Source: a virus
Virus record (IMG/VR): IMGVR_UViG_3300023094_000009
Location: 77,285-141,284 of that record
DNA length: 64,000 bases
Direction: 5' to 3' (one strand)
Of this stretch, positions 1-22,273 are shown one piece after another. Both the position numbers and the translations under genes were made by a program. The first letter of the stretch is position 1. The number at the start of each line of letters is the position of its first letter. The notes beneath the pieces were generated by a model that was given only the letters and a program-made list of their open reading frames with translations, ran no database searches and was not told where the DNA came from.

Positions 1-2265
1 TATTTGTTCAGTTGTTTTTTCTGGGTCTATGTTTCTTAATACTTCCTGTACATTGTGTTGATTAAATTCTTTTTCTAGGTCTTCTCTCTTTGCTTGGGGT
101 CTTAGCCTTTGAAGGATGTCGAGTTGATTTGTTAGCCTGTTATCCTCCATCAATTGCCTGTCCACACCATCTTCAAAATAGTAGGTAGCATTTCCCTTTT
201 CATCACGCGCAATGATACTTTTCTCAAACCTTCTCCAATTCTGTGCTTCATAGGATGTAGTGTAACCTTGAACCACATTCTTAAACATGGAAGAAGTTTG
301 GGTGTACATATCCTGAATAAACTTACCCAAAATCCCTAAGAAAGGACTTGCGCTCTGACTTAAAGGAGAAAACAATTTATGGAAAAATCCTACATCCTTG
401 CTCACAGCATCCAGATTATTTATGGTATTCTGTTTTTCCTGTTCAGACATGGTGGAATTATCAAGAAGATCATTCACCACTTCATCAGATACACCTGCCT
501 TACTTTCGTCCATTTCGATCTGCATAGTACCCATACGGCTCAAGATGTCATTGATATCCCTAACTACTGAATCAGCAGATTTCTTCTCGTTTGTCGTATT
601 AAATTCAGTTTGTTCTGCCCACCTTCTTAGTTCATTCAAGACTTGTGGGATATTGGTGTTATAAGCTTCAAAAATAGTGTAGTCCATTAGAGACATACCA
701 TTTGTTGGGATTCCGTTTGAAGTGGTAGTTTGGTTATCCTTATTTAAAATGTTGAGATTAGCTTTGATTGTGGAGTTTAGGCTATTTATGTTTTCGAGCT
801 TTGTCAGATTAGAAGAATCCTCTTCAACTCTTTCCAAAGTACCTATTAGATCTCCTGCGTTATGTTTCTTGAAGGTTTGCTGAATTTTATTCAACTCATT
901 AAATCCTTTATTTATGTCGCTGGCAATTTTATCATTAACAGTCAAGGAAAAATAAACATCATCCCCCAAATTAGATTCAGAGAAATTTGTATAATTTTCA
1001 TTGAGAATGTCTTTCCTTATGTTATTTACAAGATTGTTCAGAACGCTCTTATGTCTTTGAGTAAATCTGCTTGAAATGAAATCCAAAAATCTCTGCCACA
1101 ATGTTGCAACTTCGGACGTGAAAACATCTTCCTGAATGCTACGAGCCAAAACTTTCCCAAGAATCTCTTTTCTTACCTTGTTTTCAAGTTCAATCCCTGA
1201 ATACTCATCTGAATACTTGTTTCTGTAAACTTCTGCCCAATCCCTGTATTCTTGAGTGTCTTCCACCTCCATCATGGCAGATATGATAGAAGCCTGATCA
1301 TTGTAAGCTTCAACTGCTAGGTGGGCAACTTCCTCTGTAATGACATCTTGGATATTGACACCTTCTGCCAAAGCAACCACACGATTGCTTAAATCAATAA
1401 GTCCTGCTACATCTGTATCTTGTCCATGTCTCACAGTAAATGAGGCTCTATAATTATCCATAGTTGTTATGGAGATACCTAGAGAAGATAGGAAATTTAT
1501 CAGCTTAACTGTGTTCAGTTTGTTTTTAGGCGCGTTTGTGTTGTCTCTTATCTGATCAAATGTACGTGTCAGTAAGTCATTGGCTCGAAGATACAAGTCC
1601 TCTTTGTAGAGTACATCATCACGCTCCAATACTTTTTTAAGTTCAGTCTTGGAAACAACTTCAATCCCGCCATCTCTAGTGTAAACTGAAACGTAATCAG
1701 AAACAGGGTTTTCAATTGTAATGCTTCCGTCCTGTTCTACCATCACGTAGTTACCCAAAACTGAAGAAGCTTCATCTTGAAAAACTCGTGCCATCAAAAC
1801 TTTATCACGTACATAGTTTCCCTTACCCATCATTTTACCTTGGGTAAGTTTGTCTTCAATAACACCTTTTGCTATTTGGGAAGTGATGAATTTGTTGGTG
1901 GGGGTAAGCGATGTATTGAAAGTAGCTACACGTAAGAAACTGTTGTCTTGTGGATTAACAAAACCCAAGTCAAGTCGCCCTTCATTACCTGCAATAATAA
2001 TGTCTTCCAGATCTTCCAGAGTATTACCTTTCAAGTCTCTGAAATAAATCTTAGGCTCTCCTGTTGGGTAAGTGTTTGCACTTCCTGAATTATACAGAGC
2101 TTTCACTTCATCCGAATACGCATTGGAATATATTTGAAGAGCTATTTCAGGCGAATTGAAATAGATGTTGGAATTGATTGCTTCAAACAATTGGGATTCT
2201 TGTCCATCTTCTGTTTGTACAGAAATTATTTGACCTTGATTATTTCTTTCTACTCGACACGCCAT
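1..2265 (-). CDS. Giant virion cargo (ejected) protein, 3' end outside window; zincin-like domain
   Basis: Not in the ORF track. Hand translation from ATG 2265 (MACRVERNNQGQIISVQTEDGQESQLF...) gives 755 codons with no stop to the window edge. Contains TEEVAHLAVE (EEVAH at 1321-1335) and downstream KEILGKVLA, a zincin-like EExxH...E signature of crAss-like giant proteins. Confidence 0.8.
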   Translation of the reverse strand, partial: MACRVERNNQGQIISVQTEDGQESQLFEAINSNIYFNSPEIALQIYSNAYSDEVKALYNSGSANTYPTGEPKIYFRDLKGNTLEDLEDIIIAGNEGRLDLGFVNPQDNSFLRVATFNTSLTPTNKFITSQIAKGVIEDKLTQGKMMGKGNYVRDKVLMARVFQDEASSVLGNYVMVEQDGSITIENPVSDYVSVYTRDGGIEVVSKTELKKVLERDDVLYKEDLYLRANDLLTRTFDQIRDNTNAPKNKLNTVKLINFLSSLGISITTMDNYRASFTVRHGQDTDVAGLIDLSNRVVALAEGVNIQDVITEEVAHLAVEAYNDQASIISAMMEVEDTQEYRDWAEVYRNKYSDEYSGIELENKVRKEILGKVLARSIQEDVFTSEVATLWQRFLDFISSRFTQRHKSVLNNLVNNIRKDILNENYTNFSESNLGDDVYFSLTVNDKIASDINKGFNELNKIQQTFKKHNAGDLIGTLERVEEDSSNLTKLENINSLNSTIKANLNILNKDNQTTTSNGIPTNGMSLMDYTIFEAYNTNIPQVLNELRRWAEQTEFNTTNEKKSADSVVRDINDILSRMGTMQIEMDESKAGVSDEVVNDLLDNSTMSEQEKQNTINNLDAVSKDVGFFHKLFSPLSQSASPFLGILGKFIQDMYTQTSSMFKNVVQGYTTSYEAQNWRRFEKSIIARDEKGNATYYFEDGVDRQLMEDNRLTNQLDILQRLRPQAKREDLEKEFNQHNVQEVLRNIDPEKTTEQI

Positions 2266-2268
2266 CTG

Positions 2269-2655
2269 TTATAAATTATTTGCGATTGCCAGAACTTCTG
2301 CTTCTGTTTTTCTTGTGATTATTTTTACTTTTGCGCCGATTTTGGCGTTGTCCTCGTCTACTGTACTGAACAAGTTTCCACAAACTTTCCTTATTTCGTA
2401 TTTTGGCATGTTTGTTGTTTTAGAGAATCCCTTTTCGCGGATTATCCGGTATTTTAGATTCAATTTACCTATGGAAATAACTTCGCCTTTATTGAGGAAA
2501 GTCTTTAAGGTAATCACCCACTTTCCCTTTTCTAAATCCATTTCCTCTGCAACGTAAGTAATGTTCAAGCCAACTCTGCTGTCAACTAAAACGGTACGAG
2601 ATGGGTAATAGTTCCCAGTGTAAACAATTACAGGATCTTTTTTACATTCTTCCAT
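2269..2655 (-). CDS. Hypothetical protein (128 aa)
   Basis: Fills the gap between cargo genes; TAAATTTG promoter box 7 nt upstream. Confidence 0.65.
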   Translation of the reverse strand: MEECKKDPVIVYTGNYYPSRTVLVDSRVGLNITYVAEEMDLEKGKWVITLKTFLNKGEVISIGKLNLKYRIIREKGFSKTTNMPKYEIRKVCGNLFSTVDEDNAKIGAKVKIITRKTEAEVLAIANNL

Positions 2656-2662
2656 TTGTTTG

Positions 2663-2670
2663 CAAATTTA
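2663..2670 (-). promoter_or_regulatory. Bacteroidota -7 promoter box TAAATTTG
   Basis: Matches TAnnTTTG consensus; intergenic, just upstream of ATG 2655. Confidence 0.6.
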
Positions 2671-2685
2671 ATGAAATTAATTGAA

Positions 2686-4851
2686 TTACAATGCACATTC
2701 GTTGAATTCTTTTTGGATATTTTCTAATTCCGATTGAGGGTACAAATTGGTCATCTCTAAATTCGTGTCATTAACTGATTGCTTTGTGGTGACTTCTAAT
2801 GTCTCCATATTCACTTCTTGTGGAAGGATAGGCTCAATACTCCTGACAGCTGAATTCAGTTTTTGTTCTGCTCGGTTTCTGTTGAAAGAGAAATTTGTAT
2901 TTGTGTCGAAATAAACATTATTTTCCTCGACTCTGATTTGACCATAGATAGAGCCATCCACTGAATCCAAAAGTTTTCGGTAAATATTCTCTCCTGTTCT
3001 CAGGTACAAGTCTGTATTTGGAGCTGTTATAATGAACTCTTCATCTGAAATAAAATTACCCATCTGCAACTCCTTTACAGAATCTGGGTTATTTAAAGCT
3101 TCTAAATCTTCATTAATGTAGTCGTCTGTCTCTGTCAAAGTCTTGATTATTCCCTCTTTCTTTAGCTTTGCGTAATCTCTCAACTCTTTTTCAAAGCGGA
3201 TTCCTGTTACATCGACATTTGGATTACTTAAAGTTATGTCTGCATCTGTTATTGAAAAATATTTCAATATTTTATTGTAGACAGGTGTGTTGTTTGACTT
3301 CTGCTCCAATTGGTAAGCATAAAAATCAGATACGAATTCTGTTTTAAGATATTCAGGATTCTCCGCAAAGCTGGCTTGATTTGTACCTAAAGGAGAGTGG
3401 TCAAAAATAACTTGATAAAGAGAGATTTCTTCACCAAAACTGGAATCAAAGCCTATTTCTCTTGACTGTATAAACCTTCTTATTCCCTCTCTTGTGAATA
3501 TTTCGTTTTCTGCAAGTTTTAGGTTTTCTGTGTCAAAATACTTTGGATCAATATTAATGGTGTTTTCAAGGTATGCCCTATAAACTGCATCATAAAGATT
3601 TTCCAGTGAAGTTCTTTGAACTCTTTGATATAGTCCTGAGTTGTCAATTCTTATTAGTCCTGAATTTTCGAATAGCGCATCCTCACTAAAGTTTGTATCT
3701 ACCCTTACAATGTTCAGGGGTTTGTATTTTTCTGGAAGTGTTTCAAGTACGCTGTTCATAGGAGGTACTATCAGGGAATCTTTAATTAAGGAAAAGCTGT
3801 TAATATTTTCGTCCACCGGATTATTCAGCATACCAACTGTTGATCTTACCAAGTCAATTACTCCTTGCCTGTTTGAAAAGTTTTGTTCTATTCCTACTAC
3901 ATCAACATTGTATTGGAGGAGTTCACTTGTAGTTTCTTTTAACAGTTTTTTAATTGCCGACTTTTTATCATCCCAAACTTCCTCTTCAATGCTCTCTAGG
4001 AAATCTAGAGTTTCCTCTAATTCAACCGTATCTACATTTGCCAGAATAGTATTTCTTGTTGTGGTGAAGGTAGAAAGATTCCTTGAAGTGAATGTATTCC
4101 CATCAAAAAATAAGACAGGTACGTTAGTCTTGTCTTGAAGATAGTTAGTGATGCGATTGATAAAACTGCTTGAATCCAGTAACGCTGAAAACGCTGAATC
4201 AGCAATTGCTTTAACTAAAGAAGGCTTGGAAAAATCTCCATTAGCTGTATCAGAAATTGTTTTTATAATGTCTTGTTCATTGACAAAAGGAAATGTTCCA
4301 AATATTGTTTTTTCGGCTTCTGTGTCCTTGAACTTTGTGGTAGAAGTGAAGATTCGTGTATTGTCTGAAAATACATCAAAGTCCAGATTATAAACATTCA
4401 TTCTGGCAAGCAGATCCCTCATCTTATTAGGGTTGAGTGCTTCAATTTCTTCTTGTGAATAAATCCCACTTTTCAGGAGTCTTTTCTCATCAATTTCAAA
4501 GTACCCGTTAGGTTGGAACAGGGAGTTCATTCTTGTTGTCAAAGTGAATAAACTATCCATGCCCAAATCATTCATCATCATTCTTGATTGCTGAAGCTCA
4601 GATTCGGATAGAGTTTGAGTATTGTCAAAGTTGTCAATGTAACGTAGAACTTCTTCTACGCTTGGTATCATATCATCACCAAACATTTCACTCCACCCAT
4701 CCGTCTGAGTAACTGCCCATATTCTGAGAGCTTGGTCTGTGTCGCCAGTGAAGTCTAATGCTTGTTGGTATAAAGGAGAAATGGAGCCTTCCATATCAAA
4801 TACAGAAACAGCTCCATTAGTATTTACAACTCGACAACTTTTTATCATCAT
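2686..4851 (-). CDS. Virion cargo protein (721 aa)
   Basis: Long acidic ORF coupled to the upstream gene (ATGA overlap); N-terminal domain resembles that of the 1-2265 protein. Confidence 0.75.
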   Translation of the reverse strand: MMIKSCRVVNTNGAVSVFDMEGSISPLYQQALDFTGDTDQALRIWAVTQTDGWSEMFGDDMIPSVEEVLRYIDNFDNTQTLSESELQQSRMMMNDLGMDSLFTLTTRMNSLFQPNGYFEIDEKRLLKSGIYSQEEIEALNPNKMRDLLARMNVYNLDFDVFSDNTRIFTSTTKFKDTEAEKTIFGTFPFVNEQDIIKTISDTANGDFSKPSLVKAIADSAFSALLDSSSFINRITNYLQDKTNVPVLFFDGNTFTSRNLSTFTTTRNTILANVDTVELEETLDFLESIEEEVWDDKKSAIKKLLKETTSELLQYNVDVVGIEQNFSNRQGVIDLVRSTVGMLNNPVDENINSFSLIKDSLIVPPMNSVLETLPEKYKPLNIVRVDTNFSEDALFENSGLIRIDNSGLYQRVQRTSLENLYDAVYRAYLENTINIDPKYFDTENLKLAENEIFTREGIRRFIQSREIGFDSSFGEEISLYQVIFDHSPLGTNQASFAENPEYLKTEFVSDFYAYQLEQKSNNTPVYNKILKYFSITDADITLSNPNVDVTGIRFEKELRDYAKLKKEGIIKTLTETDDYINEDLEALNNPDSVKELQMGNFISDEEFIITAPNTDLYLRTGENIYRKLLDSVDGSIYGQIRVEENNVYFDTNTNFSFNRNRAEQKLNSAVRSIEPILPQEVNMETLEVTTKQSVNDTNLEMTNLYPQSELENIQKEFNECAL

Positions 4852-7800
4852 TTACAAAAATTGAAATTTTTAAGTCCTGCTTTTTCATTTACAGTGTTGA
4901 CTGCTGATTGTGTTGCTGACTTTTTCTTTTTATCCTGTGTTTCGGGCGTTTCCTCGATAACAGTTTCAATTGAAGCCAAGTCAAACTTGATTTTAGGACT
5001 TACAAAAGGGGCAGACATGTCCAGACTTATTGTTACATTTCCTATCAACGCCTCTGCAATGGAAGTTCTAGAATCATTCCACCCATCTACACTGCTAAGA
5101 TACTGCTTTTCGCTCAATTGGGAAAATAAGTTGTCAAAAGCTTCACTGCTCAATCCGTTGCCTAAATCAATGAAGGCATTCCCTGTCTGTGTTACATCTA
5201 TTCCAGCTCTGGCTAAAATTGAATTAAGTCGTATGGCTTTCTCTGATCCTTCCAAAGTCTCATTGTTGAACAACCCTTGGAATTCATTCAAATCAATTGG
5301 AGAAGCATTCCTAGACACTCTCACAGGGAAAGCAATATGTTTCACTCCTTGACGGATAATGACAACAGGTGTTTTTGAACTTCTGTTTGCAATAACTGCT
5401 GTGTTGATGAAAGTCTTGTCTATACTGTCAATGCTTGTTCTAGTGTAAAGCTTTCCATTCTGTACATAACCAATATCAGCAATCTTGTCTAGGTCTTGCT
5501 CCCTGATTGGTCTTGATTGTCTTAGAACCACATCTTCATCAATGATTGTATTGAAGTTAGGAAGTCCTGCATAGACGTTTTTAACCTTGATTGTGTATTC
5601 AGAAGGGGTTTCGTTATTGTTCAATATTAAGCTCATAAGAAAAGCATCATCGTTTGCAATTTCCCTTCTTAGAGATGCAAACTTTGAATCATCGCCCTTG
5701 AATCTTCCTGTATCGTCTCCTTTTGTTCCTTTCAATACTTGAACGTTGGCTGTATCTGCATTCATTGCTGTTATTCTCAGCTCTGTTGCAATTCTTGTCC
5801 TTAGTTCAGGAGAGATTCTTAAAGTTGTCGATTGGCTTTCCTTTGCCTCAATCGTGTTTTCTGCTTTCTCCCTGATTGTCGCCGTCAAATCCCTTACTTG
5901 TTGCGTCTTCTTGTTTATCTTGGATTGGTTTGCTGTTGTCTTTGGAAGATTGTTCAGACTAAGAAGTTCAGCTTGTAATTTTATTACAGTTTTGTTTTTA
6001 TTAAGGTTTTTCTGGAATTCCAGTTCTATTGCGTTCTCTCTCTGCTCATCCGTTATGATACTATTTGCATTCTCTCTGATTATGGCATCAAAGATAGACC
6101 TATTCCAATCATTGTTTGGATCAACAGCTAGTGTGAGGATCTCTCCGTCCCTTACATTGAAAACATCTTCCCTGCTTATATCATTATCGTAATCTGAATT
6201 GAGCGGAACCCAAGATTGAACTCCATCCATGGAAGTTACACTTTTCCTGATCATGGAATAGTAGGTGGAAGTTTCATCCACTGAGCTGGACGTTATCCGA
6301 ATTTTACCTGCCTGATTTATCCTGTCCACAATTTCTCTTGTAATCTTGAAAGCTTTGGTTACAGGATCTTCTTCAACTTCCGTTTCCAGAATTTCCACTC
6401 CGGTTAATGCTATGAAGGCATCTAAAGTGTAGTTGTGAATACTTGTCAATACCACTCCATTCTCTAAAACTTCTTGTGAAACTGCTACTTCATAGTTCTG
6501 CCCAACAGCTAGATTCCTGTTTTGGGATTTATTGACTATTCGTGCATCTTCAATCACTTCTTCGTCTGTTGCTTCTACTACATCAGGAGCGAAATCCACA
6601 GGACTGTTTTCAAGAGCGACCAATTGTTTTATCAAGTCTGAAAGTTCAAGCTGATCCCTTGTTGTACCTAAAATAGATATCCACTGATTAACTTGATTCT
6701 CTAGAGTTTCAAATTCATCCTGTTCGTCCAGAGTTAATGTTCCTTGATTTACTCTTTTCTTTAGTAGCTTTAGATAGCTTTTATACCCTTCACTTTCCAA
6801 GAATTTAAAAGGAGTTCTGAGGTCATTGTTTTCAGTTTCTTTTGCTTCGATTTCTTGTCTTCTGCTCTCAATTTCACTTTCGGTGTTAATTGGAACTACG
6901 CTGTCAACTACCTCTACAACTTCTGAATTTGTGAATAACTCAACCATTTTAGGGTTGGCTCTAAATTCACTTCCATTTCTATCCATTACAATAGTATCAC
7001 CATCAATAGCTGTCACTGTTGAGATCCTACCAGTGACATCTCTTAGAGTCTGTCCAACTTGAACTTCACTTGCATTTTCAATAGCTTGAGGTTGTCCTAT
7101 TTGTGTTATCTCAAATGTGGCACTCCTTCCATCACGGCTAACCTCTGTCAATAAACCTTTATCAACTGCTCTTTGGTGCATTGCTTGTGCTCCATCTCCT
7201 GCCGAAACTGTAGAAATGGTTGTCACGCCTTGATTACTCATAAGCTCAATCAGAGCTTCAAACATAATGCTTCCAGAGCCTTGACCCACTTCATTGGCTG
7301 AAATACCGTCAATCCTGAATTCTGTTGGAGAAATTAGTACTCCCGAAAGAAGTCCCAATTCATTCCTGAACTCATACAATGTGCCATCTTCTACTTCTGT
7401 GGTTATTGGTTCTCCTAGAATATTAGATTGCTCCTCGTCTACTTGAGGAGTTACTATTCCATTTTCAATGTCAGAAATCTCTTTCTGCAATTCCTCTATT
7501 CGAGATTGGTTTTCTCGTATTTTTCTTAAATTTTCGAGCGTAGGCTTGTTTGTAATTATATCAATTTCGTTGGTGATATCTTCAATAAGACTGCTTAATT
7601 CCTCAATGTTGTTAATTGCGATTCGTGCATTTGTTGGTGCAGATTCTATGCTGTCACCTGTATCCTCTATAGTAACTTCTTCTAATGGTAAAATTGCTTG
7701 TTGGCTTTCTTCTACCCGTCTTTGTATTGCATCATAAGCAAACTGTGCACGAAGCATTGACTCAATCTTGAATTTTTCCCTTTCAGACAAGTCCGTGTTT

Positions 7801-10505
7801 TCACTCAATATTTGCTCAAACTGAGTGATAAGGTCATCTCCCCTGTATCCAATTTTTTCAAGGATTGGATTGATTGTTGCCTCATTTGCTCTCAGTTCTT
7901 TTTTCGCCTCTTCCGACATTGAATACGGAGAGCCAAGAATTGAACTTATTAGTCCTTTGCCTTCCCTTGAAGAATAGAAATTGGTTGCTGCCATTCTTCG
8001 TATGGTATCTGAAGCATTTGCTTCTAAAGCCAAATACCCGTCAAACTGATCTAAAAGAAATTCCAACTCCCTTGCTTCTTTTGTCTTTCCTGTAGCTCTT
8101 AGGGTTTCTACATATTGATTTAGACTTGCATATCTTTCTGATAGTTGATTGATAGTGGGAACTTGTGAAGTTTCACCATAAGATATTGTTTCCAGCCTCT
8201 TGTTCAGAGCAGTTTCTAAAACTTCCTGCCTTGCGGTGCTCTTTATTAGCTGGTTTGATAGAGCAACTTGTTTTTTAGATAACTCCTTTGCCAGCACTTC
8301 ATTGCCCTCAACTGATTGCATCTGTGCTCCAACTTCTGCAATTGCCGTAGTAAGCTCAGCTATTTCATTCTTAGTCTGTTCATATTCTGCATAGGCATTG
8401 TCTTGTTCATTCTGTAATTCATTGAAGAACTTTAAAGTACTGTAAGCACCTTCCTCTCCTGTCAAGGCAGAAATGTTGTCTCCGATTGTATTTACAATGT
8501 CCCCTGCCTTGAAACCTTGCATAAGAGCCAAAGTGGTAGCATCTTTCAATTCAATTACTTGCCCATTAGGTAGTCTGGAATTTTCAATACCTAAAGATTC
8601 AACTGTCTTGTTTGCTTTCTGGTACAATGTGTAGTCCCTCTGGAATCCAGCCTTTAGGGAATCTTTGTACTCCCGAACCTGTGCTTCACTTTCAAATCCC
8701 AAATTTCTTTGCTGTTCCTGCGTGAATTCCAATCCATCAACAGAAGCTTCGAAATCTGCAATTGTATCTGCATATCCCTTCAATCCTTCGTTTGCTTTTA
8801 TGAAGGAATAGTTAATTGCAGAATCTTCAAGTATAGTAAACTCTGCCTGATTGGTCTCCTTTGTTATCTGAAAATTACCAATTGAGTTTGCCCTGTTCAA
8901 GTCACGGAATTTTCCAATGTACTTGTTATATTCTTCAACAGACTTGTCAATGGAGTTCAATTGGGATGCGTAGCTGTTTTTACCTAGCCCCTGAACTCCA
9001 AAAGATGCGCCTTCCATTCCTCTTACACCTAAAGCGGTGAGAGGTTTTGAAATTGCTGCGCCTACATTTCCTCCTGCAAGTCCTATAATACCTCCAATAA
9101 CCACTTCCTTAAGTCCTTCCTTGGTTGTATATTGCTCCACAAAAGATTCTTGAAGTGCATTGGCAAAGGAGTGGATATCGGCTGTTTTAGGATCATATTT
9201 TGCTTCCAAATACTTGGACATTGTTTTACCAAAAACTCCTTGCAAGCCTTCTTCAACCACACCCTCCCTTAAAACAGGCTTGGAAACATTTACCGCTCTG
9301 CCCAGCATTCTCTGCGCCTTCGTACCTTTGCTGAACACCTTGGTTCCGTCTGCCATTGTTGTCACTGACCTTCCAAGAATACCATCTTCAATTCCCAGCT
9401 TTGGAAACTTGATCATTTTCAGATCAAACATTTTTGAATACATTGCAAAGTTTGTAACAGAAAGTAGTGCAGCATTTGCTCCAAATACCTTGTTGGCGGT
9501 ACTCTCTGCATCTTTCATGAAGGTTGTCAGGTCTTCTGCTGTAGGTAATTCTCCATAGGTGGTTTGATAATCACTGACATATTTATCTACAGCATCAGTG
9601 TAGCTGTGACGTGCTTCCATTCCGGCTTCAAATCCAACAGACTGACCCAAGAACCTTGCTGTCTTGAATACTTCCCCTGTACTTGCTCCTACATTTGTAG
9701 CTGTTGCAAATTTATCAATTGAACTTCTATTCAGTCTTCTTAGTGCGCGGGTTCCTATTTCCCTTTCTGCAACTCTTGTTGTTGCGGATATAAGGTCATC
9801 TGCATTATTTCTTGCTACATTTACAGCTATGTTATCGGCTGATTTTGCAAGTCCTTTAATTCCAAGTCTTGCTCCTGCTTTGGCAAATGAACTTGGTAAA
9901 GATGCACCACCAGATAAAATTGCAAGAGGAACTTCACTCAATACTGTTCCTGCCACAAAAGCAAGCCCATTTCCTACATCATTGAACCAGAAGTTAGCTG
10001 TACCCATTTGTCCCAAAAGACTTTTGGCTTTTTCTTCATTTGAATAATAGTGTGCAAAGTTTCTGTCCAATCTTTTTGATTGCTCGTCAAGAAAATTGGA
10101 TGCGTCATTATCCCACAAAGCAGAAAGCTCTCCCTGTGAGATTGCACTTCCTAGTCCATAGGTTACTGTCGCTAAAGCATCAGCTGCTATGAGTCCTGTT
10201 TTTCCTAGGAATTTCGTTACACCATTTCCTGCTTTTTCTCCCCAGCTTTGTTGTTGGGCTAGACGATCTTCATTATCAAAAGCTCCAAGATAGTTGTCAT
10301 ATTTCAAAGCGGAAACCCCGTACCTATCTGTTTCAGCAACAGCAGAGGTGGGAACATCATACTTCACATTCTCAATCCTACCCTTATCCCAAGGCATGTC
10401 AAGGACTCCTGAATATTGGAAACCTTGGGGTTTTACAGCACCTCTTGTACCTCTTGATTGCAGATCTGCTTGTAGCTTATTTAAAACTTCTTCGTTTGTT
10501 GGCAT
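4848..10505 (-). CDS. Giant virion cargo/ejection protein (1885 aa) with hydrophobic N-terminal segments, coiled coils and a GNAT-like insert
   Basis: Gly/Ala-rich hydrophobic stretches (GLAFVAGTVLSEVPLAILSGG; VVIGGIIGLAGGNVGAA), coiled coils, position downstream of tail genes as in crAss-like phages. Confidence 0.75.
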   Translation of the reverse strand: MPTNEEVLNKLQADLQSRGTRGAVKPQGFQYSGVLDMPWDKGRIENVKYDVPTSAVAETDRYGVSALKYDNYLGAFDNEDRLAQQQSWGEKAGNGVTKFLGKTGLIAADALATVTYGLGSAISQGELSALWDNDASNFLDEQSKRLDRNFAHYYSNEEKAKSLLGQMGTANFWFNDVGNGLAFVAGTVLSEVPLAILSGGASLPSSFAKAGARLGIKGLAKSADNIAVNVARNNADDLISATTRVAEREIGTRALRRLNRSSIDKFATATNVGASTGEVFKTARFLGQSVGFEAGMEARHSYTDAVDKYVSDYQTTYGELPTAEDLTTFMKDAESTANKVFGANAALLSVTNFAMYSKMFDLKMIKFPKLGIEDGILGRSVTTMADGTKVFSKGTKAQRMLGRAVNVSKPVLREGVVEEGLQGVFGKTMSKYLEAKYDPKTADIHSFANALQESFVEQYTTKEGLKEVVIGGIIGLAGGNVGAAISKPLTALGVRGMEGASFGVQGLGKNSYASQLNSIDKSVEEYNKYIGKFRDLNRANSIGNFQITKETNQAEFTILEDSAINYSFIKANEGLKGYADTIADFEASVDGLEFTQEQQRNLGFESEAQVREYKDSLKAGFQRDYTLYQKANKTVESLGIENSRLPNGQVIELKDATTLALMQGFKAGDIVNTIGDNISALTGEEGAYSTLKFFNELQNEQDNAYAEYEQTKNEIAELTTAIAEVGAQMQSVEGNEVLAKELSKKQVALSNQLIKSTARQEVLETALNKRLETISYGETSQVPTINQLSERYASLNQYVETLRATGKTKEARELEFLLDQFDGYLALEANASDTIRRMAATNFYSSREGKGLISSILGSPYSMSEEAKKELRANEATINPILEKIGYRGDDLITQFEQILSENTDLSEREKFKIESMLRAQFAYDAIQRRVEESQQAILPLEEVTIEDTGDSIESAPTNARIAINNIEELSSLIEDITNEIDIITNKPTLENLRKIRENQSRIEELQKEISDIENGIVTPQVDEEQSNILGEPITTEVEDGTLYEFRNELGLLSGVLISPTEFRIDGISANEVGQGSGSIMFEALIELMSNQGVTTISTVSAGDGAQAMHQRAVDKGLLTEVSRDGRSATFEITQIGQPQAIENASEVQVGQTLRDVTGRISTVTAIDGDTIVMDRNGSEFRANPKMVELFTNSEVVEVVDSVVPINTESEIESRRQEIEAKETENNDLRTPFKFLESEGYKSYLKLLKKRVNQGTLTLDEQDEFETLENQVNQWISILGTTRDQLELSDLIKQLVALENSPVDFAPDVVEATDEEVIEDARIVNKSQNRNLAVGQNYEVAVSQEVLENGVVLTSIHNYTLDAFIALTGVEILETEVEEDPVTKAFKITREIVDRINQAGKIRITSSSVDETSTYYSMIRKSVTSMDGVQSWVPLNSDYDNDISREDVFNVRDGEILTLAVDPNNDWNRSIFDAIIRENANSIITDEQRENAIELEFQKNLNKNKTVIKLQAELLSLNNLPKTTANQSKINKKTQQVRDLTATIREKAENTIEAKESQSTTLRISPELRTRIATELRITAMNADTANVQVLKGTKGDDTGRFKGDDSKFASLRREIANDDAFLMSLILNNNETPSEYTIKVKNVYAGLPNFNTIIDEDVVLRQSRPIREQDLDKIADIGYVQNGKLYTRTSIDSIDKTFINTAVIANRSSKTPVVIIRQGVKHIAFPVRVSRNASPIDLNEFQGLFNNETLEGSEKAIRLNSILARAGIDVTQTGNAFIDLGNGLSSEAFDNLFSQLSEKQYLSSVDGWNDSRTSIAEALIGNVTISLDMSAPFVSPKIKFDLASIETVIEETPETQDKKKKSATQSAVNTVNEKAGLKNFNFCK

Positions 10506-10602: not shown

Positions 10603-11013
10603 TTATCTGATAAATCTGCCAAAAAAGACATTTCTTTCAGAGTTTATCGGATGTTTTTTTATCCATTCATCATATGTTTCTAACGAATCAAGTCTTTTTT
10701 CGAACTTGTCCATCCCTGAAGTGACAAATTCTTCTGAGTAATCCTGAAGGCATACATTATCTTCTCCCTGAATAAGCATGTCCATGCTGTCAACCTTGAA
10801 TTTGTAAGATTCTCCCAAGTAATGAAATTCGTATTCTGTCAGTTCTTTATATTTAACCTTGTTTTCTATTTCCCGCGCCAGAGAAGAAAGTTTGTCAGCA
10901 TCGTAACTTTCCTGTTTGCTTCTATGTAGTATTGTTCTTAAAATGCTACTTTTAAGTCCAGATTCCCGATCTTTGAACTGTCGGCGTACACTAACTGTAA
11001 ATTTATTTTCCAT
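10603..11013 (-). CDS. Hypothetical passenger protein (136 aa)
   Basis: ORF with natural charged composition inside the element. Confidence 0.65.
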   Translation of the reverse strand: MENKFTVSVRRQFKDRESGLKSSILRTILHRSKQESYDADKLSSLAREIENKVKYKELTEYEFHYLGESYKFKVDSMDMLIQGEDNVCLQDYSEEFVTSGMDKFEKRLDSLETYDEWIKKHPINSERNVFFGRFIR

Positions 11014-11311
11014 GAATGATTATGTTAAAGAAAGAGATGTTGAAAAAGCCACTGGCCTGAGAGCTATACACTATTCCTATCCTTCTGGACAAGGGCTCTT
11101 ATACCTAACTGGTTATTTCATTGTAGAGAGATTTAAGATCTCCTCTAAGCTAAGTCTGGATTATAAGCTGACTCAAATTCTCGATGTTGTTGATTATATC
11201 GAAACAGGTGTAGTTAAAAGTACAAAGGTATATTCTTTAGAAGGCGATGAACTGCTATTGTCATCTCAGAATCCCCTTCCACTATTACCTGAATATGTTG
11301 TAAAAGAATAG
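11012..11311 (+). CDS. Hypothetical passenger protein (99 aa, MNDYVKERD...)
   Basis: ATG at 11012 within track ORF 10916-11311; the upstream part is the antisense shadow of the 136-aa gene. Confidence 0.5.
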   Translation: MNDYVKERDVEKATGLRAIHYSYPSGQGLLYLTGYFIVERFKISSKLSLDYKLTQILDVVDYIETGVVKSTKVYSLEGDELLLSSQNPLPLLPEYVVKE

Positions 11312-11338
11312 CAACTACATTCTGTTGTCTTAAGGCGG

Positions 11339-11388
11339 GGTGTGAGATCACTTAAATGTACCAGCTAAGATACTGGTTTTTAGTTTTT
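11339..11388 (+). repeat. Internal direct copy of the element left end with conserved hairpin
   Basis: 11349-11388 CACTTAAATGTACCAGCTAAGATACTGGTTTTTAGTTTTT versus 10531-10570 CACTAAAATGTACCAGACAAAATGCTGATTTTTAGTCTTT (33/40). Confidence 0.75.
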
Positions 11389-12331
11389 AAGATTTATTCT
11401 GAATAGTGCTATTTTTTAACCAAATTTTGAAATGATTACTGCCAATGAATTTAAGGACTGTACTTTTGTCAAACAGTATAGTCAATAAGTGGTATGCTGT
11501 TAGTACATATTCTTGAAGATCTTGAGAGTCCTCTAAATCTTCAACACAAAGGCCTTGGCTTTTAGCCTCGATCCGATCAATCCTTCTTCCATGACTTTTC
11601 TTTTTGTGACCATCTACTGAACCACGGCTAAAGTGTGCAGAGACAGCTTCGCTTTTCTTTTTAGCTCCTGCTATCCCCTTAAATACATAACTCTCCAACC
11701 AATCTGCTACAATTTGTTCAGAATATTCAACAGCGTTTTGGGACTCTTGAAGCAATGCTGGCCCCATTGTTGAGAGTGTGGGTGCCCATAAGTGAGCTTG
11801 AACGCTATTTTCTAAAATATCCTGCTTTGCTCTTTCAAACTGATCAATTATGGCTAAAGCAGAAACAAAGCGTCCGTTAAGGTTCATTTGTGGATCAATT
11901 GGCCCTAATTGGCTTTGCCTTCCCATAATGATTCTATCACAAGAAAGACTTATCATAGTACCTGCGGACATCGCATAAGTAGGTATAATTACTTCAATAT
12001 CCTTAAATTTGGATCTAAGATACGAAACAATAGTTTCTGTCGCATTTGTAACTCCTCCAGGTGTATGGAGTAGTATGGTTAGACCTTTTGTGAAATCCAT
12101 TCCATGTATGACGGACATAAAGCCATTTATGTCCTCTGATGTAATTGATAAAGTCCCTTGATTTGCTGTGGGTTTTTGGAGAAAAGCTGAAGCATAAAAA
12201 ATCACATTCCTACCTTCCCTAAGTGTAGAGATTTTGTTAAGCTCTTTTACAAGGTTATCAACTAACCAGTTGACCACGACGTCTTTATCTAAAGTTTCTA
12301 CCTTGGAAACTAAATCTGTCCATGAAGGCAT
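11387..12331 (-). CDS. SDH-family (Clp/crotonase-fold, S49-like) serine protease
   Basis: Motifs LHTPGG, AMSAGTMI (catalytic Ser), LGPIDPQ (Asp), SHGRRI (His). Confidence 0.88.
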   Translation of the reverse strand: MPSWTDLVSKVETLDKDVVVNWLVDNLVKELNKISTLREGRNVIFYASAFLQKPTANQGTLSITSEDINGFMSVIHGMDFTKGLTILLHTPGGVTNATETIVSYLRSKFKDIEVIIPTYAMSAGTMISLSCDRIIMGRQSQLGPIDPQMNLNGRFVSALAIIDQFERAKQDILENSVQAHLWAPTLSTMGPALLQESQNAVEYSEQIVADWLESYVFKGIAGAKKKSEAVSAHFSRGSVDGHKKKSHGRRIDRIEAKSQGLCVEDLEDSQDLQEYVLTAYHLLTILFDKSTVLKFIGSNHFKIWLKNSTIQNKS

Positions 12332-12525
12332 TAGCGTAGTGTGATATTAAGTGGATAACTAGCGTCTCTGTACAACGATTCATCTTGTATACATTCCTTT
12401 GTAATTTGTAACAGATCATAGGAATTTAATTCAAGATATACATTGTATTGAGCTGATACCTCATTTAGTATCACTGTGATATCTTTATTTTTGGGATATT
12501 CTTTATTTGATTCGAGTGAATTCAT
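12331..12525 (-). CDS. Small protein translationally coupled to the SDH protease (64 aa)
   Basis: TAATG stop/start overlap with the protease gene. Confidence 0.65.
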   Translation of the reverse strand: MNSLESNKEYPKNKDITVILNEVSAQYNVYLELNSYDLLQITKECIQDESLYRDASYPLNITLR

Positions 12526-12610
12526 GTTATTCAGTGTGTTGGTTTCTGCAAAGAAACAATTTTTAAGTTATTGTTGGACTACCACTCATCACTAATTAAT
12601 GATATTTCTA

Positions 12611-12745
12611 TTACTTCTCTTTCTTAGGCTTCACCACAACCTTCTTCAGAACCTCGCTAAAGCCTTCCTTCAGTTCTTTGTCACCATACTTCTTGGTGAG
12701 CTGTTCGTCCGATAAAGCTTCTTTCTTTTTCTTCTTTTCTGCCAT
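12611..12745 (-). CDS. Small basic protein (44 aa) downstream of the transposase
   Basis: Hand-translated MAEKKKKKEALSDEQLTKKYGDKELKEGFSEVLKKVVVKPKKEK; TAAATTTA box a few nt upstream. Confidence 0.5.
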   Translation of the reverse strand: MAEKKKKKEALSDEQLTKKYGDKELKEGFSEVLKKVVVKPKKEK

Positions 12746-12851
12746 AGGGCTTAAATTTACTGAATCTGTTGCTTGACAGACATGTATTTAACTTCCATTT
12801 AACCTTTTAAAGGTACGGATAGTCCTTGTTTATTCCAAATAAATGGCTTTG

Positions 12852-13814
12852 TTATACATTTTTTGAAATGAGGTCTTTGTATTTCAGTCTTTTTTGTGCC
12901 ATTTTCACGAGAGAGTTATTAAACTTTTGCCCTGCGTTGTCTTCGCGCCCGTTGAACCGGAAAGACATCTCATCACAATACATCTGAAGATGCTTGCGGG
13001 AAACATGGAAATAGGTTCCCTTGATGCTCCTCTTTAAATGACTCCAGAAATTTTCTACATTGTTGCTTGAGAAACCGCTTTCCGTGGCATACTGTTTCAG
13101 GTTGTGGTTTACATACTGGTGGTCATAGTCTGCATTAAGTCCTGTGTATCCCATCCATTCATCTGTTACGATTGTAGCTCCGGCTTGCACCAGTTCTTTC
13201 ACCAGTGGCTTCAAAGTTTCTCCCTGCGTATTTGGAATAACTCTTGTATATATCTTGTTGTCCTGTATCATTCCAAACACTGGAGTTTTATCCTTGTAGG
13301 ATCTTCCTTGCGAATTTTTGACTTTCTTGTTTTTGTGGCGATTTTTGTTGCTGCCTCCTACAAAGCTCTCATCCATTGTAGCAACAGAAAGAGACTTTTC
13401 AGGAATAGCCTGAACATAGGATGCACGAAGCCTGCTTAACATGAACCAAGCAGTCTTTTGTGTAACTCCAAGGTCTTCTGCAAGCTGATAAGAACTGATT
13501 CCACGCTTGTGAGAAGCGAAAATAAATATGGCGATAAACCATGTCCTTAGAGGAATCGGGGAACTTTCAAATATGGTTCCCACTCTTATGGTGTATCTCT
13601 TTTTACATCCTCCGCATTTGTATAATCCGTTGAACTCTCCTTTTACATTCAGTTTGTATTGCTTTGTTTCCTTGCAATGAGGACACACTGGATTACCTTG
13701 CCAGATTGTGTTCTCAAGATATTCCCTGCAAGATGTTTCATCTGGCAATTGCTTCAGCATTTGAACTAATGATTTGAACTCTAGATTATACATAACTTCA
13801 AGTTTTAAATACAC
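12852..13814 (-). CDS. IS1595-family (ISXO2-like) DDE transposase; likely start ATG 13793
   Basis: Zn ribbon CPHC...CGGC, HTH GISSYQLAEDLGVTQKTAWFML, catalytic MDES, VTDE, NNVENFWS and YCDEMSFRFN motifs. Confidence 0.93.
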   Translation of the reverse strand: MYLKLEVMYNLEFKSLVQMLKQLPDETSCREYLENTIWQGNPVCPHCKETKQYKLNVKGEFNGLYKCGGCKKRYTIRVGTIFESSPIPLRTWFIAIFIFASHKRGISSYQLAEDLGVTQKTAWFMLSRLRASYVQAIPEKSLSVATMDESFVGGSNKNRHKNKKVKNSQGRSYKDKTPVFGMIQDNKIYTRVIPNTQGETLKPLVKELVQAGATIVTDEWMGYTGLNADYDHQYVNHNLKQYATESGFSSNNVENFWSHLKRSIKGTYFHVSRKHLQMYCDEMSFRFNGREDNAGQKFNNSLVKMAQKRLKYKDLISKNV

Positions 13815-13949
13815 TGAGAAGTTACGATATTTTACTGGAGTTCCCTAGCTTTTTAACATTAGTTACGTGTAATTATAATAAATTGTTATTTATCCACATT
13901 TCGTTTTTGATTAATATTCTGTCATATCTTTGATGAATAAATCATCCGA

Positions 13950-14546
13950 ATGTGTTATCAAGTAAGACAAACTTCAAGTAAAAAGGATATTGAAAGAAGG
14001 TTTAGTGCCGATTTCCTTACTGTTATTCCTGATTATCAGCGTGAAGAAGTGAGTGGTTTCACGCATCCAAAAATGCCTGTTATTGCTAACAGCATGGTTG
14101 ACAAAATACAGCTTTTTCAATGGGGACTGATTCCGCAGAACCAGAAAAATACACTGAATGCAAGAATTGAAACAATAAGGGAAAAACCGTCCTTCAGGAA
14201 TTTTGTAAACCAGAAATGTCTGATACTTGTTAATGGCTTCTATGAGTGGAAGCATGTACCGGGAGAGAGGCATGACAGACATAAATACCTTCTTTCGTTG
14301 CCTGACAACGGATCATTTGCTCTTGCGGGATTGTGGAGCGAATGGGAATTCCTGAATGGAGAGAAATATAGAACCTTTACCGTCATTACTACAGAAGCCC
14401 AAGGTATAATGAGAGAAATACACAATACTAAGCTCAGGATGCCTGTTATACTCAAAAGGGAAATTGAAATGGATTGGCTTATGGGTAAGCGTACAGCTAA
14501 GCTTCATACGGATTTGGTTGCTACCAAGATTTTCCCTTTATTCTAG
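13950..14546 (+). CDS. SOS response-associated peptidase (SRAP/YedK/HMCES family)
   Basis: Catalytic Cys2 (MCY), WGLIP, NARIET, GFYEWK, IHN..RMPVIL; TATCTTTG promoter at 13925-13932. Confidence 0.92.
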   Translation: MCYQVRQTSSKKDIERRFSADFLTVIPDYQREEVSGFTHPKMPVIANSMVDKIQLFQWGLIPQNQKNTLNARIETIREKPSFRNFVNQKCLILVNGFYEWKHVPGERHDRHKYLLSLPDNGSFALAGLWSEWEFLNGEKYRTFTVITTEAQGIMREIHNTKLRMPVILKREIEMDWLMGKRTAKLHTDLVATKIFPLF

Positions 14547-14773
14547 TTAAACAAATCTTTAAGCTCTACGTCCAGCGCTTTTGATATTTTGATAAGAGTC
14601 TTTACTGTTGGATTCTGTTTTCCGCGTTCAATCTCACCTAACTTGGATAATGGTACACCAGAATCAATGGATAAGTCAAGTTGCCTCATATCTTTTTCCA
14701 TACGAAGAAACTTAATCTTGTTCCCAAGATCTAACAAGTAGTGGTCATCATTCATTTGGGTACAATAAAGCAT
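14543..14773 (-). CDS. XRE-family HTH transcriptional regulator
   Basis: LGNKIKFLRMEKDMRQLDLS...LGEIERGKQNPTVKTLIKISKAL is a classic HTH_3 pattern. Confidence 0.92.
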   Translation of the reverse strand: MLYCTQMNDDHYLLDLGNKIKFLRMEKDMRQLDLSIDSGVPLSKLGEIERGKQNPTVKTLIKISKALDVELKDLFN

Positions 14774-14793
14774 ATTTAGTTGAAAGACAACAA

Positions 14794-14888
14794 CCCTTAT
14801 AAGGAATATAGGCTAATTTATATCCATTATTTTTAACACATAAAATAGTAATTTGTTTTATTTTTAACTATTAACACCCTTATAAGGG
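14794..14888. promoter_or_regulatory. Two palindromic operator-like sites CCCTTATAAGG(G/A)
   Basis: 14794-14805 and 14877-14888 in the divergent intergenic region; the second lies just upstream of TAACTTTG (14898-14905). Confidence 0.7.
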
Positions 14889-14951
14889 ATATTTGTCTAA
14901 CTTTGTATAGGTTTGACATACTTCAGTGTTAGGCTTTTATTGCCACTTATT

Positions 14952-15191
14952 ATGAAAAAGCTACTTATTATCACTTCAGTTTCTTTATTAATCCTCTCTT
15001 CCTGCAACAAGGACTACAATTGTGTCTGCTCGCTTTATAACGAACAAGGGCAAACCGTAGCAACTGAAGAATACAATTCAACTCAGTACAAGAAAAAGGA
15101 TAAAGACGAGGCAGAGAAGAGTTGCAAGGATCGCGATGTTGCGCCTAATGGGGCGTTCGGTGAAATGGGTCGTAAATGTGAGCTGAGATGA
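14952..15191 (+). CDS. Small lipoprotein
   Basis: ATG 14952: MKKLLIITSVSLLILSS-C lipobox; four more Cys in the mature part. Confidence 0.8.
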   Translation: MKKLLIITSVSLLILSSCNKDYNCVCSLYNEQGQTVATEEYNSTQYKKKDKDEAEKSCKDRDVAPNGAFGEMGRKCELR

Positions 15192-15760
15192 CATCTACAA
15201 AAACTATCAGAAATGATTTTACAAACGAGGAAAAACTTGCTTGTCTTACAGTACTTCACCTACTGATTGAATCAAGTGAGCCTCGATTTAAAAATACAAG
15301 AAAAGGTGTGCTTATTCATAATGCCAAACTATTTGGTGTGTATGACTTTATGTTAGAAGAATACATAGAAAATGTGACTTCAGAATCCTTGAAGAAAGAC
15401 TTATCATTAAGCAACACAAAAGTGGAGTATCTTATAGCTATGACTTATGAGATGCTAAACTCAGCAGGGTTTACCAAAAACGATATAGTGAACGCAGAAA
15501 ATCTATTCCTTAGAGCTGTAGGTGTAACTCCTGATGAACTTCATGCATCTTTAGAAAGAGTTAGAATTTTTACTAAAAAGTTTAACGAAAGGACTCATGC
15601 AAGTCAAGTACATCCTTCAAACAATGCTGTAAGTCGTACTTATCAAAGAATGGCAATTCAAGCTCAAGATCCTAATCAAAATAGCTTTTCTTTGAACAAC
15701 ATTGTATTCATTATTTTCACCGCTTTAGCTATTTTGGGTCTTGTAAGTCTGTGTAGCTAA
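15188..15760 (+). CDS. Membrane-anchored protein, possible TerB-like helical domain
   Basis: Helical pattern reminiscent of TerB/DjlA-N; C-terminal hydrophobic helix IVFIIFTALAILGLVSL. Confidence 0.55.
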   Translation: MTSTKTIRNDFTNEEKLACLTVLHLLIESSEPRFKNTRKGVLIHNAKLFGVYDFMLEEYIENVTSESLKKDLSLSNTKVEYLIAMTYEMLNSAGFTKNDIVNAENLFLRAVGVTPDELHASLERVRIFTKKFNERTHASQVHPSNNAVSRTYQRMAIQAQDPNQNSFSLNNIVFIIFTALAILGLVSLCS

Positions 15761-15797
15761 AAGCTTATTTTTGTGATAACTCTAAATAATAATCGCT

Positions 15798-16112
15798 ATG
15801 AAAGAAGAAAATTTGAAAACACTCAATGAAAAATACAACACTATTTTAAACGATTTTAAAACCTTCGCTGAAAATTATGAAGGTAAAAATCTTAGTGAAG
15901 ATTTCCAATCTGAGTTTAAGGAGCGGTACGACGATATTAGTTCTAGTTTTTCAGATATTATACGCAGACAAGTTAAAGTATCAAAAGAGGAGGGTGTTCA
16001 TGTTATAGAAAACCTTCCAATCTTAAAAAACATACACAGATTAAATAACATTCTTATGATGACATACGAAGCTTATTTAAAGGTCGCCTTCCATGAGAAG
16101 GCTGTAAACTAA
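15798..16112 (+). CDS. Hypothetical helical protein (104 aa)
   Basis: ORF with TATTTTTG promoter at 15766-15773. Confidence 0.65.
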   Translation: MKEENLKTLNEKYNTILNDFKTFAENYEGKNLSEDFQSEFKERYDDISSSFSDIIRRQVKVSKEEGVHVIENLPILKNIHRLNNILMMTYEAYLKVAFHEKAVN

Positions 16113-16304
16113 CTTAGGTGTCATAAAAACTCTCATAGGACTGTCTGATTCAATAAGCATCCTGTTCAAGCTAAATACCATATCTTGAATGCGTGTGTGC
16201 ATCAAGGTTTCTGGTGAATGTTTTGATTGTTGTTTTTTGATAAACTCTAAATGTTCTTCTGATTCGATTCCAACTGTGAATCTTTCAATATATTTTTCTT
16301 CCAT
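16077..16304 (-). CDS. Hypothetical protein (~75 aa), convergently overlapping the 104-aa gene
   Basis: ATG 16304 (MEEKYIERF...) preceded by A-rich leader; 36-bp tail-to-tail overlap. Confidence 0.45.
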   Translation of the reverse strand: MEEKYIERFTVGIESEEHLEFIKKQQSKHSPETLMHTRIQDMVFSLNRMLIESDSPMRVFMTPKLVYSLLMEGDL

Positions 16305-16348
16305 TTTTCGGCGAAATTCCGGCAAAAAACTGAAAAAACAACTTACGC

Positions 16349-16378
16349 GGTGCTTTTTAGTATATTAGTGCCAAAGGG
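16349..16378 (-). repeat. Right terminal inverted repeat
   Basis: GGTGCTTTTTAGTATATTAGTGCCAAAGGG, inverse of 10515-10544. Confidence 0.75.
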
Positions 16379-16399
16379 TTAATATAAATTTTGTTGATG

Positions 16400-16407
16400 C
16401 AAAGATA
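16400..16407 (-). promoter_or_regulatory. -7 promoter box TATCTTTG, probably the native promoter of the 1885-aa gene
   Basis: Perfect consensus, 21 bp outside the right inverted repeat, pointing into the element. Confidence 0.65.
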
Positions 16408-16449
16408 TGTATTTATCTTTGATGTGGTTGTTAATGAAATGTTATTTGT

Positions 16450-19317: not shown

Positions 19318-19392
19318 AGTTTGTTTTTGTAAGAGGTAAAATTAAGGTTTTCTAACTTTCTGTGCAAGAATATGTGTCAGTGGGTAATAAAA

Positions 19393-19422
19393 CAAAAAAG
19401 CCCCCGTTTTATTGGAGGCTTG
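19393..19422 (-). terminator. Rho-independent terminator
   Basis: AAGCCTCC-AATAAAAC-GGGGGCTT followed by T-run, right after the 712-aa gene. Confidence 0.75.
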
Positions 19423-19426
19423 TGGG

Positions 19427-21565: not shown

Positions 21566-22272
21566 TACATTGTTCCCCCTAAGTAGTTCGTATTCATGTA
21601 TTGCATTTGAGGGGTATAAAGTCTCAAAGCCATTTGTCTTCTTGCTTCTTCTGTTGCCCTTCCTGTTTGTTTTGCGTTTGCAAGTCCTGACAAGAAAGTC
21701 CTTCCTGCTCCAAGTCCAAGAGCTGTTGCTGAGGAAGCAACTCCAAGCCCTCTCCCTGTTGTTCCTCTTGGTGTCCCTATGAAGTTACCCAAACTGTACA
21801 AATCTGTTTGCAGGTTGCTTCCATAAGGGTTAAAGAAAGGCATCATTTGCCCGAAGAGGTTATTTTGTTCTGTGGATTGTTGTTCCCACGAATTCGGTGC
21901 AAGTGTAGTGTTTTCAGCTGTTGTTGGAGTATAAGTTTGATTCCATACATCCTGTACAGATCTGGGTTGAAGCCTCATTTCTTCTTCCATGGCAACAGGG
22001 GGAGTGTAAGTTGTCGCATAAGCGGGGTCTTGACTCATTCCTGTATTATTTGGGAGTGCCATTTCACTTGTGATGCCTGTTACACTCTGCGGAGCATTCA
22101 TGTTTATCTGAGGCTGATTTGTAGCCATTGTAGGATTGTACATCACAGGGGGAGTGTACATGGGATTGTAGGGGACTTGTTGTGTCATTGCTTGTCTACG
22201 TTGATTGTAGACTGCTTCCGAGATAAATCCCTGATCGTATTGTTCCTGTAAAAGTCTTAGTTGTTCTTCCAT
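21565..22272 (-). CDS. Low-complexity Q/M/P-rich virion protein with amphipathic C-terminus
   Basis: Coupled ORF; GLGVASSATALGLGAG segment. Confidence 0.7.
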   Translation of the reverse strand: MEEQLRLLQEQYDQGFISEAVYNQRRQAMTQQVPYNPMYTPPVMYNPTMATNQPQINMNAPQSVTGITSEMALPNNTGMSQDPAYATTYTPPVAMEEEMRLQPRSVQDVWNQTYTPTTAENTTLAPNSWEQQSTEQNNLFGQMMPFFNPYGSNLQTDLYSLGNFIGTPRGTTGRGLGVASSATALGLGAGRTFLSGLANAKQTGRATEEARRQMALRLYTPQMQYMNTNYLGGTM

Positions 22273-22273
22273 T

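Follow-up and report, generated by a model that had tools for sequence, protein, structure and literature searches.

The window analysed here, 64,000 nucleotides in length, forms the end of an IMG/VR virus record of 141,284 bp (IMGVR_UViG_3300023094_000009, about 95% complete), and at its left edge it encodes three large cargo proteins, here called A, B and C, which judging by homology are most likely packed into the virion and injected. Gene A (10505..4848, minus strand) encodes a giant cargo protein of 1885 amino acids (aa) that belongs to the crAss001 gp47/phi14:2 gp67 family and matches phrog_32390. The start codon of gene B (4851..2686, minus) lies within the stop codon of A, in an ATGA overlap, and its product is the middle cargo protein of 721 aa. 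A small open reading frame (ORF) of 128 aa comes next (2655..2269, minus), followed by gene C (2265..1, minus) of the crAss001 gp49/phi14:2 gp65 family. The window holds the first 755 of the 1895 aa of C; the remainder lies to its left, and the whole gene spans positions 73862-79549 of the genome.

Together A, B and C contain four cysteines (Cys) in 4501 residues. The single Cys of A is the penultimate residue, 1884 of 1885 (codon 4856..4854), so that the protein ends in FCK. Of the two Cys of protein B, which ends in CAL, one is residue 6 (codon 4836..4834) and the other residue 719 (codon 2697..2695). The only Cys of C is residue 3 (codon 2259..2257), in a protein that starts MAC. This pattern had been described in a first, sequence-only reading of the window; the positions given there for A and B are exact, and the lone Cys 3 of C, seen over 755 residues, holds over all 1895 in the whole genome. 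Taking as a baseline the average Cys content of the proteins of the window (1.0%), about 45 Cys would be expected in the three proteins; a count of at most 4 has a probability of about 5e-15, and the placement of all four no more than 6 residues from a terminus one of about 4e-9.

Four cargo-like proteins encoded upstream (955, 712, 235 and 285 aa; 16450..23131, minus) had also been said to be free of Cys, which we confirmed, and the homologues of upstream cargo in relatives (998/973 aa; 739/895/974 aa) likewise have none. The accompanying statement that the outer structural proteins are very rich in Cys applies to a 2296-aa protein (36 Cys) and to several small virion proteins (3-5% Cys), but not to the 587-aa capsid-like protein, the 601-aa fibre-like protein and several other structural proteins, all with no Cys. 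In the 128-aa ORF that separates B from C, Cys occurs at positions 4 and 92, neither of them conserved among relatives: the weak homologue in locus L002 (130 aa) is free of Cys, and in phi17:2 gp037 the Cys are residues 13 and 22. This small ORF is probably not a member of the chain proposed below.

Tip cysteines in related phages

The closest cultured relatives of the window phage are the Cellulophaga phages phi17:2 and phi4:1, together with the gut phage csAssE-Sib. When terminal Cys were tabulated in orthologues, the scheme found in the window (A with Cys at the C-terminal tip only, B at both tips, C at the N-terminal tip only, and the chains otherwise free or nearly free of Cys) proved to be conserved down to about 23% identity. 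In phi14:2, gp67 (1797 aa) has one Cys, its last residue, the RNA polymerase (RNAP) gp66 (2180 aa) has only Cys 3 and Cys 2179, and gp65 (1421 aa) has only Cys 3. The corresponding proteins of crAss001 are gp47, whose only Cys is residue 2339 of 2341, gp50, with Cys 5, 1334 and 2404 of 2412, and gp49, with only Cys 5. In phi17:2 the Cys is the last residue of gp039, residue 4 and the penultimate residue of gp038, and residue 3 of gp036. In DAC15 the gene for the A-type protein, gp61, lies on the opposite strand, and over the last 1412 residues of gp61 there is a single Cys, 2 residues short of the end; the RNAP gp63 of this phage has Cys 5, a Cys as last residue and three internal ones, and gp62 has Cys 4 and one more. 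The scheme is also kept in the loci L010, L011, L080, L086 and L095.

Pairing had originally been supposed to follow gene order, which turned out not to be the determinant: the A-type gene lies on the opposite strand in crAss001 as well as in DAC15, and in epsilon crAss-like loci B and C are 3-7 kb apart with the scheme intact. Since the rule holds across strands and kilobase gaps, nucleotide-level causes, including translational coupling, are excluded.

The A family provides the largest sample. Searches by tblastn place crAss001 gp47 and phi14:2 gp67 on the N-terminal region of A (E 5e-7 and 4e-4, respectively), and phi17:2 gp039 matches A with E 2.5e-61; no relative of A was found in the PDB by sequence. 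A profile of the last 300 residues of A gave 324 cluster representatives with pairwise identity <50%, the best 150 of which were examined. A Cys lies within the last 8 residues in 148 of these 150, the other two being fragments cut inside the domain, and the C-tip Cys is invariant in the family alignment. Every one of the 114 full-length representatives (1276-3427 aa; 209,022 residues in all) has exactly one Cys, located 0-7 residues from the C-terminus, and the N-terminus of A has no Cys in any sequence examined. Twenty representatives extend 134-1809 residues beyond the conserved domain, and in these the lone Cys is found at the new C-terminus rather than at the domain end, indicating that the selected feature is the end of the chain itself. 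The last ~45 residues of A are rich in Lys and poorly conserved, like a flexible tail.

At the other end of the block, crAss001 gp49 matches C in the genome with E 1e-5, and members of the C family with E 1e-13 to 1e-140. A Cys at residue 3-6 is present in 31 of 32 database homologues of C, and the exception begins at an internal Met, a miscalled start. Among 80 IMG/VR loci, all 75 distinct C-family proteins have the N-tip Cys (one of them with a GTG start), while internal Cys make up 0.13% of these 75 proteins. The C-terminus is free of Cys in every complete C-family protein examined. In an AlphaFold 2 model of the first 400 residues of C (mean predicted local distance difference test score 70), Cys 3 is predicted to immediately precede the first strand of the N-terminal domain, which is modelled with confidence. 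A Foldseek search of this model against the PDB returned nothing below E 0.25. In the csAssE-Sib record (L004, OR575929) the C-family gene at 17190-23592 is annotated as two overlapping coding sequences of 281 and 1885 aa; its IMG/VR relatives have one ORF of 2140 aa with the same Cys-5 start, and the divided annotation may be due to a frameshift in the record or to a miscall.

Protein B stands at the position of the virion RNAP in true crassviruses (phi14:2 gp66, crAss001 gp50). By sequence it lacks the DFDxD motif and resembles neither gp66 nor gp50, and tblastn found no RNAP homologue anywhere in the 141-kb genome. Searches with B alone gave no match in INPHARED phages (tblastn) and none in a single-sequence scan of IMG/VR, and a word-indexed search returned 2 homologues only. 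Cys 6 is invariant across 9 B homologues. The protein corresponds to the N-terminal module of ~720 aa of longer B proteins (1838 and 2357 aa), which have their second Cys at their own C-terminus. The N-terminal ~55 residues of B and C align with moderate support (hhalign probability 49%, E 1.8e-4), suggesting that the heads of the two proteins may be homologous.

Fusions, losses and the parity of tips

The sequence-only reading had advised looking for relatives in which these genes are fused. Such relatives exist, and they have no Cys pair at the fused junction. In Fpv1, A and the RNAP are fused in gp33 (4401 aa), which has a single, penultimate Cys, and the next protein, gp34, has Cys 3. The RNAP is fused with the C-family part in p-crAssphage gp44 and crAss002 gp33, and there tip Cys are found only at the boundary between A and the fusion protein, as the penultimate Cys of the preceding protein and Cys 3 of the fusion. 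Internal Cys are also present in p-crAssphage gp44 and crAss002 gp33, none of them conserved between the two. Cys 3 of crAss002 gp33 (L090, NC_055828, 9088-9190) appears once the start is shifted to Met 33; the annotated start is probably 32 codons too far upstream, and initiation at Met 33 gives Met-Ser-Cys, the start typical of the family, as in p-crAssphage gp44.

Loss and gain of whole proteins are accompanied by the same adjustment. In locus L096, which has no B, the last-residue Cys of A faces Cys 3 of C. In L002 an extra protein of 93 aa is encoded between B and C (11944-12225) and has Cys at both tips (Cys 3 and Cys 89); it may be an additional small link of the chain. In every lineage checked the number of N-terminal tip Cys equals that of C-terminal ones, at 2:2 in the usual arrangement, 1:1 where genes are fused or B is lost, and 3:3 in L002, and only facing termini carry a tip Cys. 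This parity, together with the Cys-free outer ends, argues for N-to-C pairing of facing ends over independent roles of the tips.

A possible link between facing tips

The sequence-only reading had already proposed a redox-cleavable chain of this kind. The checks it advised that can be made by computation, conservation of the terminal Cys in orthologues and the existence of fused relatives, both speak in its favour and give the proposal partial support. On this pattern of sequences we judge it reasonably probable that facing tips are linked and the proteins thereby form one thread, with disulfides as the simplest kind of link. Selection keeps the cargo free of Cys, with a single exception at every terminus turned towards a neighbouring protein. 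The C-terminus of A would be tied to the N-terminus of B and the C-terminus of B to the N-terminus of C, and the product would be a single thread of ~4500 residues, a split polyprotein. The bonds would form probably after release from the reducing host cell; the joined thread would then be ejected in single file, presumably in a fixed order, and would be reduced, and so released, in the cytoplasm of the next host. Because the Cys lie only a few residues from the termini, the joined product would be almost linear and could pass a narrow tail channel unfolded, and because there are no other Cys, loops and branches would be avoided. Passage through the channel in unfolded form is required for these proteins (PMC10172136), and disulfides occur in the tail of crAss001, the same kind of virion (PMC10172136). 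Homologues of the cargo were detected when virions of phi14:2 and crAss001 were analysed by mass spectrometry. The wider proposal, that the giant injected proteins of Crassvirales and their relatives form one redox-cleavable thread, a split polyprotein joined C-to-N by single tip disulfides that would ensure single-file exit and fixed stoichiometry before separation or activation in the cytoplasm, appears to us evenly balanced.

Several points weigh against a tether. We infer the tip bond, the order of ejection and the release from sequence, and the presence of A, B and C in virions of this particular phage would follow from homology. The low-oxygen medium of the gut and assembly in a reducing cytoplasm argue against easy oxidation; no sulfhydryl oxidase of the Erv1 family was found in the genome, and the only thioredoxin-like ORF detected is below threshold and far from the window. 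One to three extra internal Cys are present in crAss001 gp50, DAC15 gp63 and the B and C proteins of the epsilon lineage. Finally, two B homologues (P0002 and P0003) extend 297 or 118 aa past the C-tip Cys, so that a side branch would remain in the joined product. The loss of tip Cys upon fusion counts here as well, since it would also fit any role that needs just a free chain end.

Such a role is assumed if each tip Cys acts alone, as an anchor to the portal, the tail lumen or a small protein, or in homodimers (A-A, C-C). Any single exposed Cys can form bonds of this kind, Cys are present in portal-region and tail proteins of the window, and a fusion removes the free end, so that loss at the junction is expected here too. 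Independent action leaves unexplained, however, why the N-terminus of A and the C-terminus of C lack Cys in every complete sequence examined and why N-tips and C-tips are equal in number, and the other cargo proteins offer no Cys as partner. We consider it unlikely.

Parity and the facing of the tips are silent on chemistry, and the tips could be paired by something other than a disulfide, such as a bridging metal ion or another thiol-based cross-link. The anoxic habitat and the reducing cytoplasm speak for a link of this type. Each tip, however, has one Cys with no conserved His, Asp or second Cys nearby, two thiolates alone make a poor metal site, and disulfides are already documented in crAss001 virions, making this chemistry quite unlikely.

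Nor can parity separate a linear chain from a different topology, in which B is closed on itself (Cys 6 with Cys 719) and the C-tip of A is bonded to the N-tip of C, as the direct facing of A and C in L096 might suggest. Natural fusions, in contrast, join A with B (Fpv1) or B with C (p-crAssphage, crAss002) and never A with C, and a circle of 721-2400 residues could not thread in single file. A self-closed B is accordingly very unlikely.

The tip Cys might instead act after ejection, as redox sensors or switches in the cytoplasm or as sites of host modification. In favour of this, the phi14:2 RNAP is packaged in a self-inhibited state and its activation is unexplained. A sensor, however, would not need to lie at most 7 residues from the end in 114 of 114 proteins, nor to follow the terminus after the gain of a domain, and the scheme is identical in phages with an RNAP in the middle and in the window, whose middle protein is not one; we therefore view a role after ejection as highly improbable. 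That the pattern arose by chance, or as a side effect of composition, gene calling or translational coupling, has nothing in its favour beyond the AT-rich genome, and the probability of this reading is negligible given the probabilities for placement and depletion in the window alone and the conservation over 150 representatives, on opposite strands and over kilobase gaps.

Three further candidates were rejected. Split inteins, or protein trans-splicing, would call for an N-intein of about 100 aa following the Cys of the first protein and a C-intein with a final HN preceding that of the second. The C-terminal Cys are 0-7 residues from the chain end and the N-terminal ones are residues 3-6, so that intein halves would find no room, and the proteins of the window gave no Pfam intein match. 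A lipoprotein lipobox does not apply, as the Cys at residue 3-6 follows directly on Met and a few small or basic residues, where a signal peptide would have its hydrophobic core. A single metal or cluster site formed by four Cys is not compatible with the fused lineages, which retain only two tip Cys.

If the facing tips are indeed tethered, this would explain the fixed order and stoichiometry of the cargo, the freedom with which its genes have been fused and split in evolution, and why the cargo is otherwise stripped of Cys. No viruses are more abundant in the human gut than the crAss-like phages. How they eject more than half a megadalton of protein, including their RNA polymerase, via a narrow tail is a question that the structural papers leave open (PMC10172136, PMC13434306). 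A redox-cleavable thread would represent a new viral mode of protein packaging and delivery. The tip-Cys rule also serves as an annotation marker: it corrects start codons (crAss002 gp33, P0009, L050) and identifies members of the cargo chain in divergent phages where sequence similarity fails.

Genome setting and known systems

PHROG matches identify a crAss-like late module on the minus strand of the window, with terminase, portal, capsid-like and tail proteins and the 2296-aa Cys-rich virion protein. The 285-, 235-, 712- and 955-aa proteins come after the latter, the 712-aa protein resembling phi17:2 gp041, and an insertion of ~6 kb (10603..16112) lies between the 955-aa cargo gene and A, B and C. 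It contains a 136-aa ORF, an SDH-type ClpP-like serine protease (11387-12331), an IS1595-family transposase (12852-13814), a SOS-response associated peptidase (SRAP; 13950-14546, plus strand, 198 aa, PF02586, E 1e-40) and two small ORFs. The SRAP family has its catalytic Cys at the N-terminus, and the protein encoded here begins Met-Cys, which is unconnected with the cargo tips. In L001, L002 and phi17:2 the insertion is absent and the homologue of the 955-aa protein adjoins A directly; the insertion is outside the cargo chain.

Other features of the genome were noted in passing. A TnpB-like protein (OrfB_IS605 plus a Cas12f1-like TNB domain) is encoded at 32050-33153 (minus) amid the virion structural module. 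The portal region (50889-53632, minus) consists of two ORFs of 286 and 628 aa that overlap by 4 bases, and the portal PHROG match covers the N-terminal third of the first ORF only; this could be explained by a gene split in two, by a frameshift or by divergence of the C-terminal part. Outside the window, ~13 kb of the genome (G000:C1 ~12000-25000) has no ATG-started ORF of at least 150 aa on either strand, and could hold many small genes, RNA genes or another genetic code.

We found no description of the tip-Cys pattern in the literature on crAss-like cargo, ejection-protein disulfides and polyvalent proteins. These cysteines are unmentioned in the papers on the phi14:2 RNAP, the crAss001 atlas (PMC10172136), N4 (2026; PMC13434306) and epsilon crAss phages, and the polyvalent-protein paper (PMC5512222) mentions neither cysteine nor disulfide.

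The block of the window is most directly comparable to phi14:2 gp67-gp66-gp65 and crAss001 gp47-gp50-gp49. In all three, giant known or predicted virion proteins are encoded after the muzzle and cargo genes, A being homologous to gp47/gp67 and C to gp49/gp65, and the scheme of tip Cys is identical. The difference lies in the middle protein, which in the window has 721 aa and no detectable homology to two-barrel RNAPs by sequence. Phages phi17:2 and phi4:1 (Lightbulbvirus; gp039-gp038-gp037-gp036) share the gene order, the small ORF before C, a short middle protein (517 aa) and the tip-Cys rule, the last compared in phi17:2 at about 23% identity; they differ in their marine host and in the 6-kb insertion that separates cargo genes and A in the window phage. 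The annotation of virion proteins in phi17:2 derives from similarity to phi4:1 proteins. Fpv1 gp33, p-crAssphage gp44 and crAss002 gp33 have the same domains in the same order, linked by a peptide bond in place of the two facing Cys of the window.

A likeness in principle only is found in two other systems. Two chains of translocated AB toxins stay linked by a disulfide until they reach the cytoplasm, where the bond is reduced once a narrow channel has been crossed, and in adenovirus the disulfide between pVIc and the protease is formed by the penultimate Cys of pVIc, inside the virion. There is no homology to the proteins discussed here, and these systems join two chains, or a peptide and an enzyme, rather than stringing giant proteins together by their termini.

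The ejected proteins of phage N4, gp50 (the virion RNAP, 3500 aa), gp51 and gp52, have no Cys in 4294 residues (NC_008720 34523-47523). Like A, B and C they avoid Cys, and they are giant, packaged in the virion and ejected through a short tail; N4 differs in having one 3500-aa chain with no tip Cys, and its proteins form an unrelated family (PMC13434306). Avoidance of Cys may thus be general for proteins ejected through podovirus tails, the baseline against which the tips of the crass type are the exception. The gene after gp50-gp52 in N4 encodes gp53, with four Cys.

Finally, the relatives of these proteins resemble the polyvalent proteins of phages and conjugative elements, giant delivered polypeptides that each combine several effector or LPD domains (PMC5512222). 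Helicase, ddrB-ParB, LPD23 and Kinase-PolyVal domains are found in relatives of A and C, and one longer B-type protein has weak matches to GNAT and ART-PolyVal, whereas the A, B and C proteins of the window itself give no informative Pfam match. The domains of the relatives suggest that the cargo block may represent 'polyvalent' injected proteins that are split in this lineage (PMC5512222). The block itself is known from the phages compared here, and a tether of tip cysteines would be a new feature of it.

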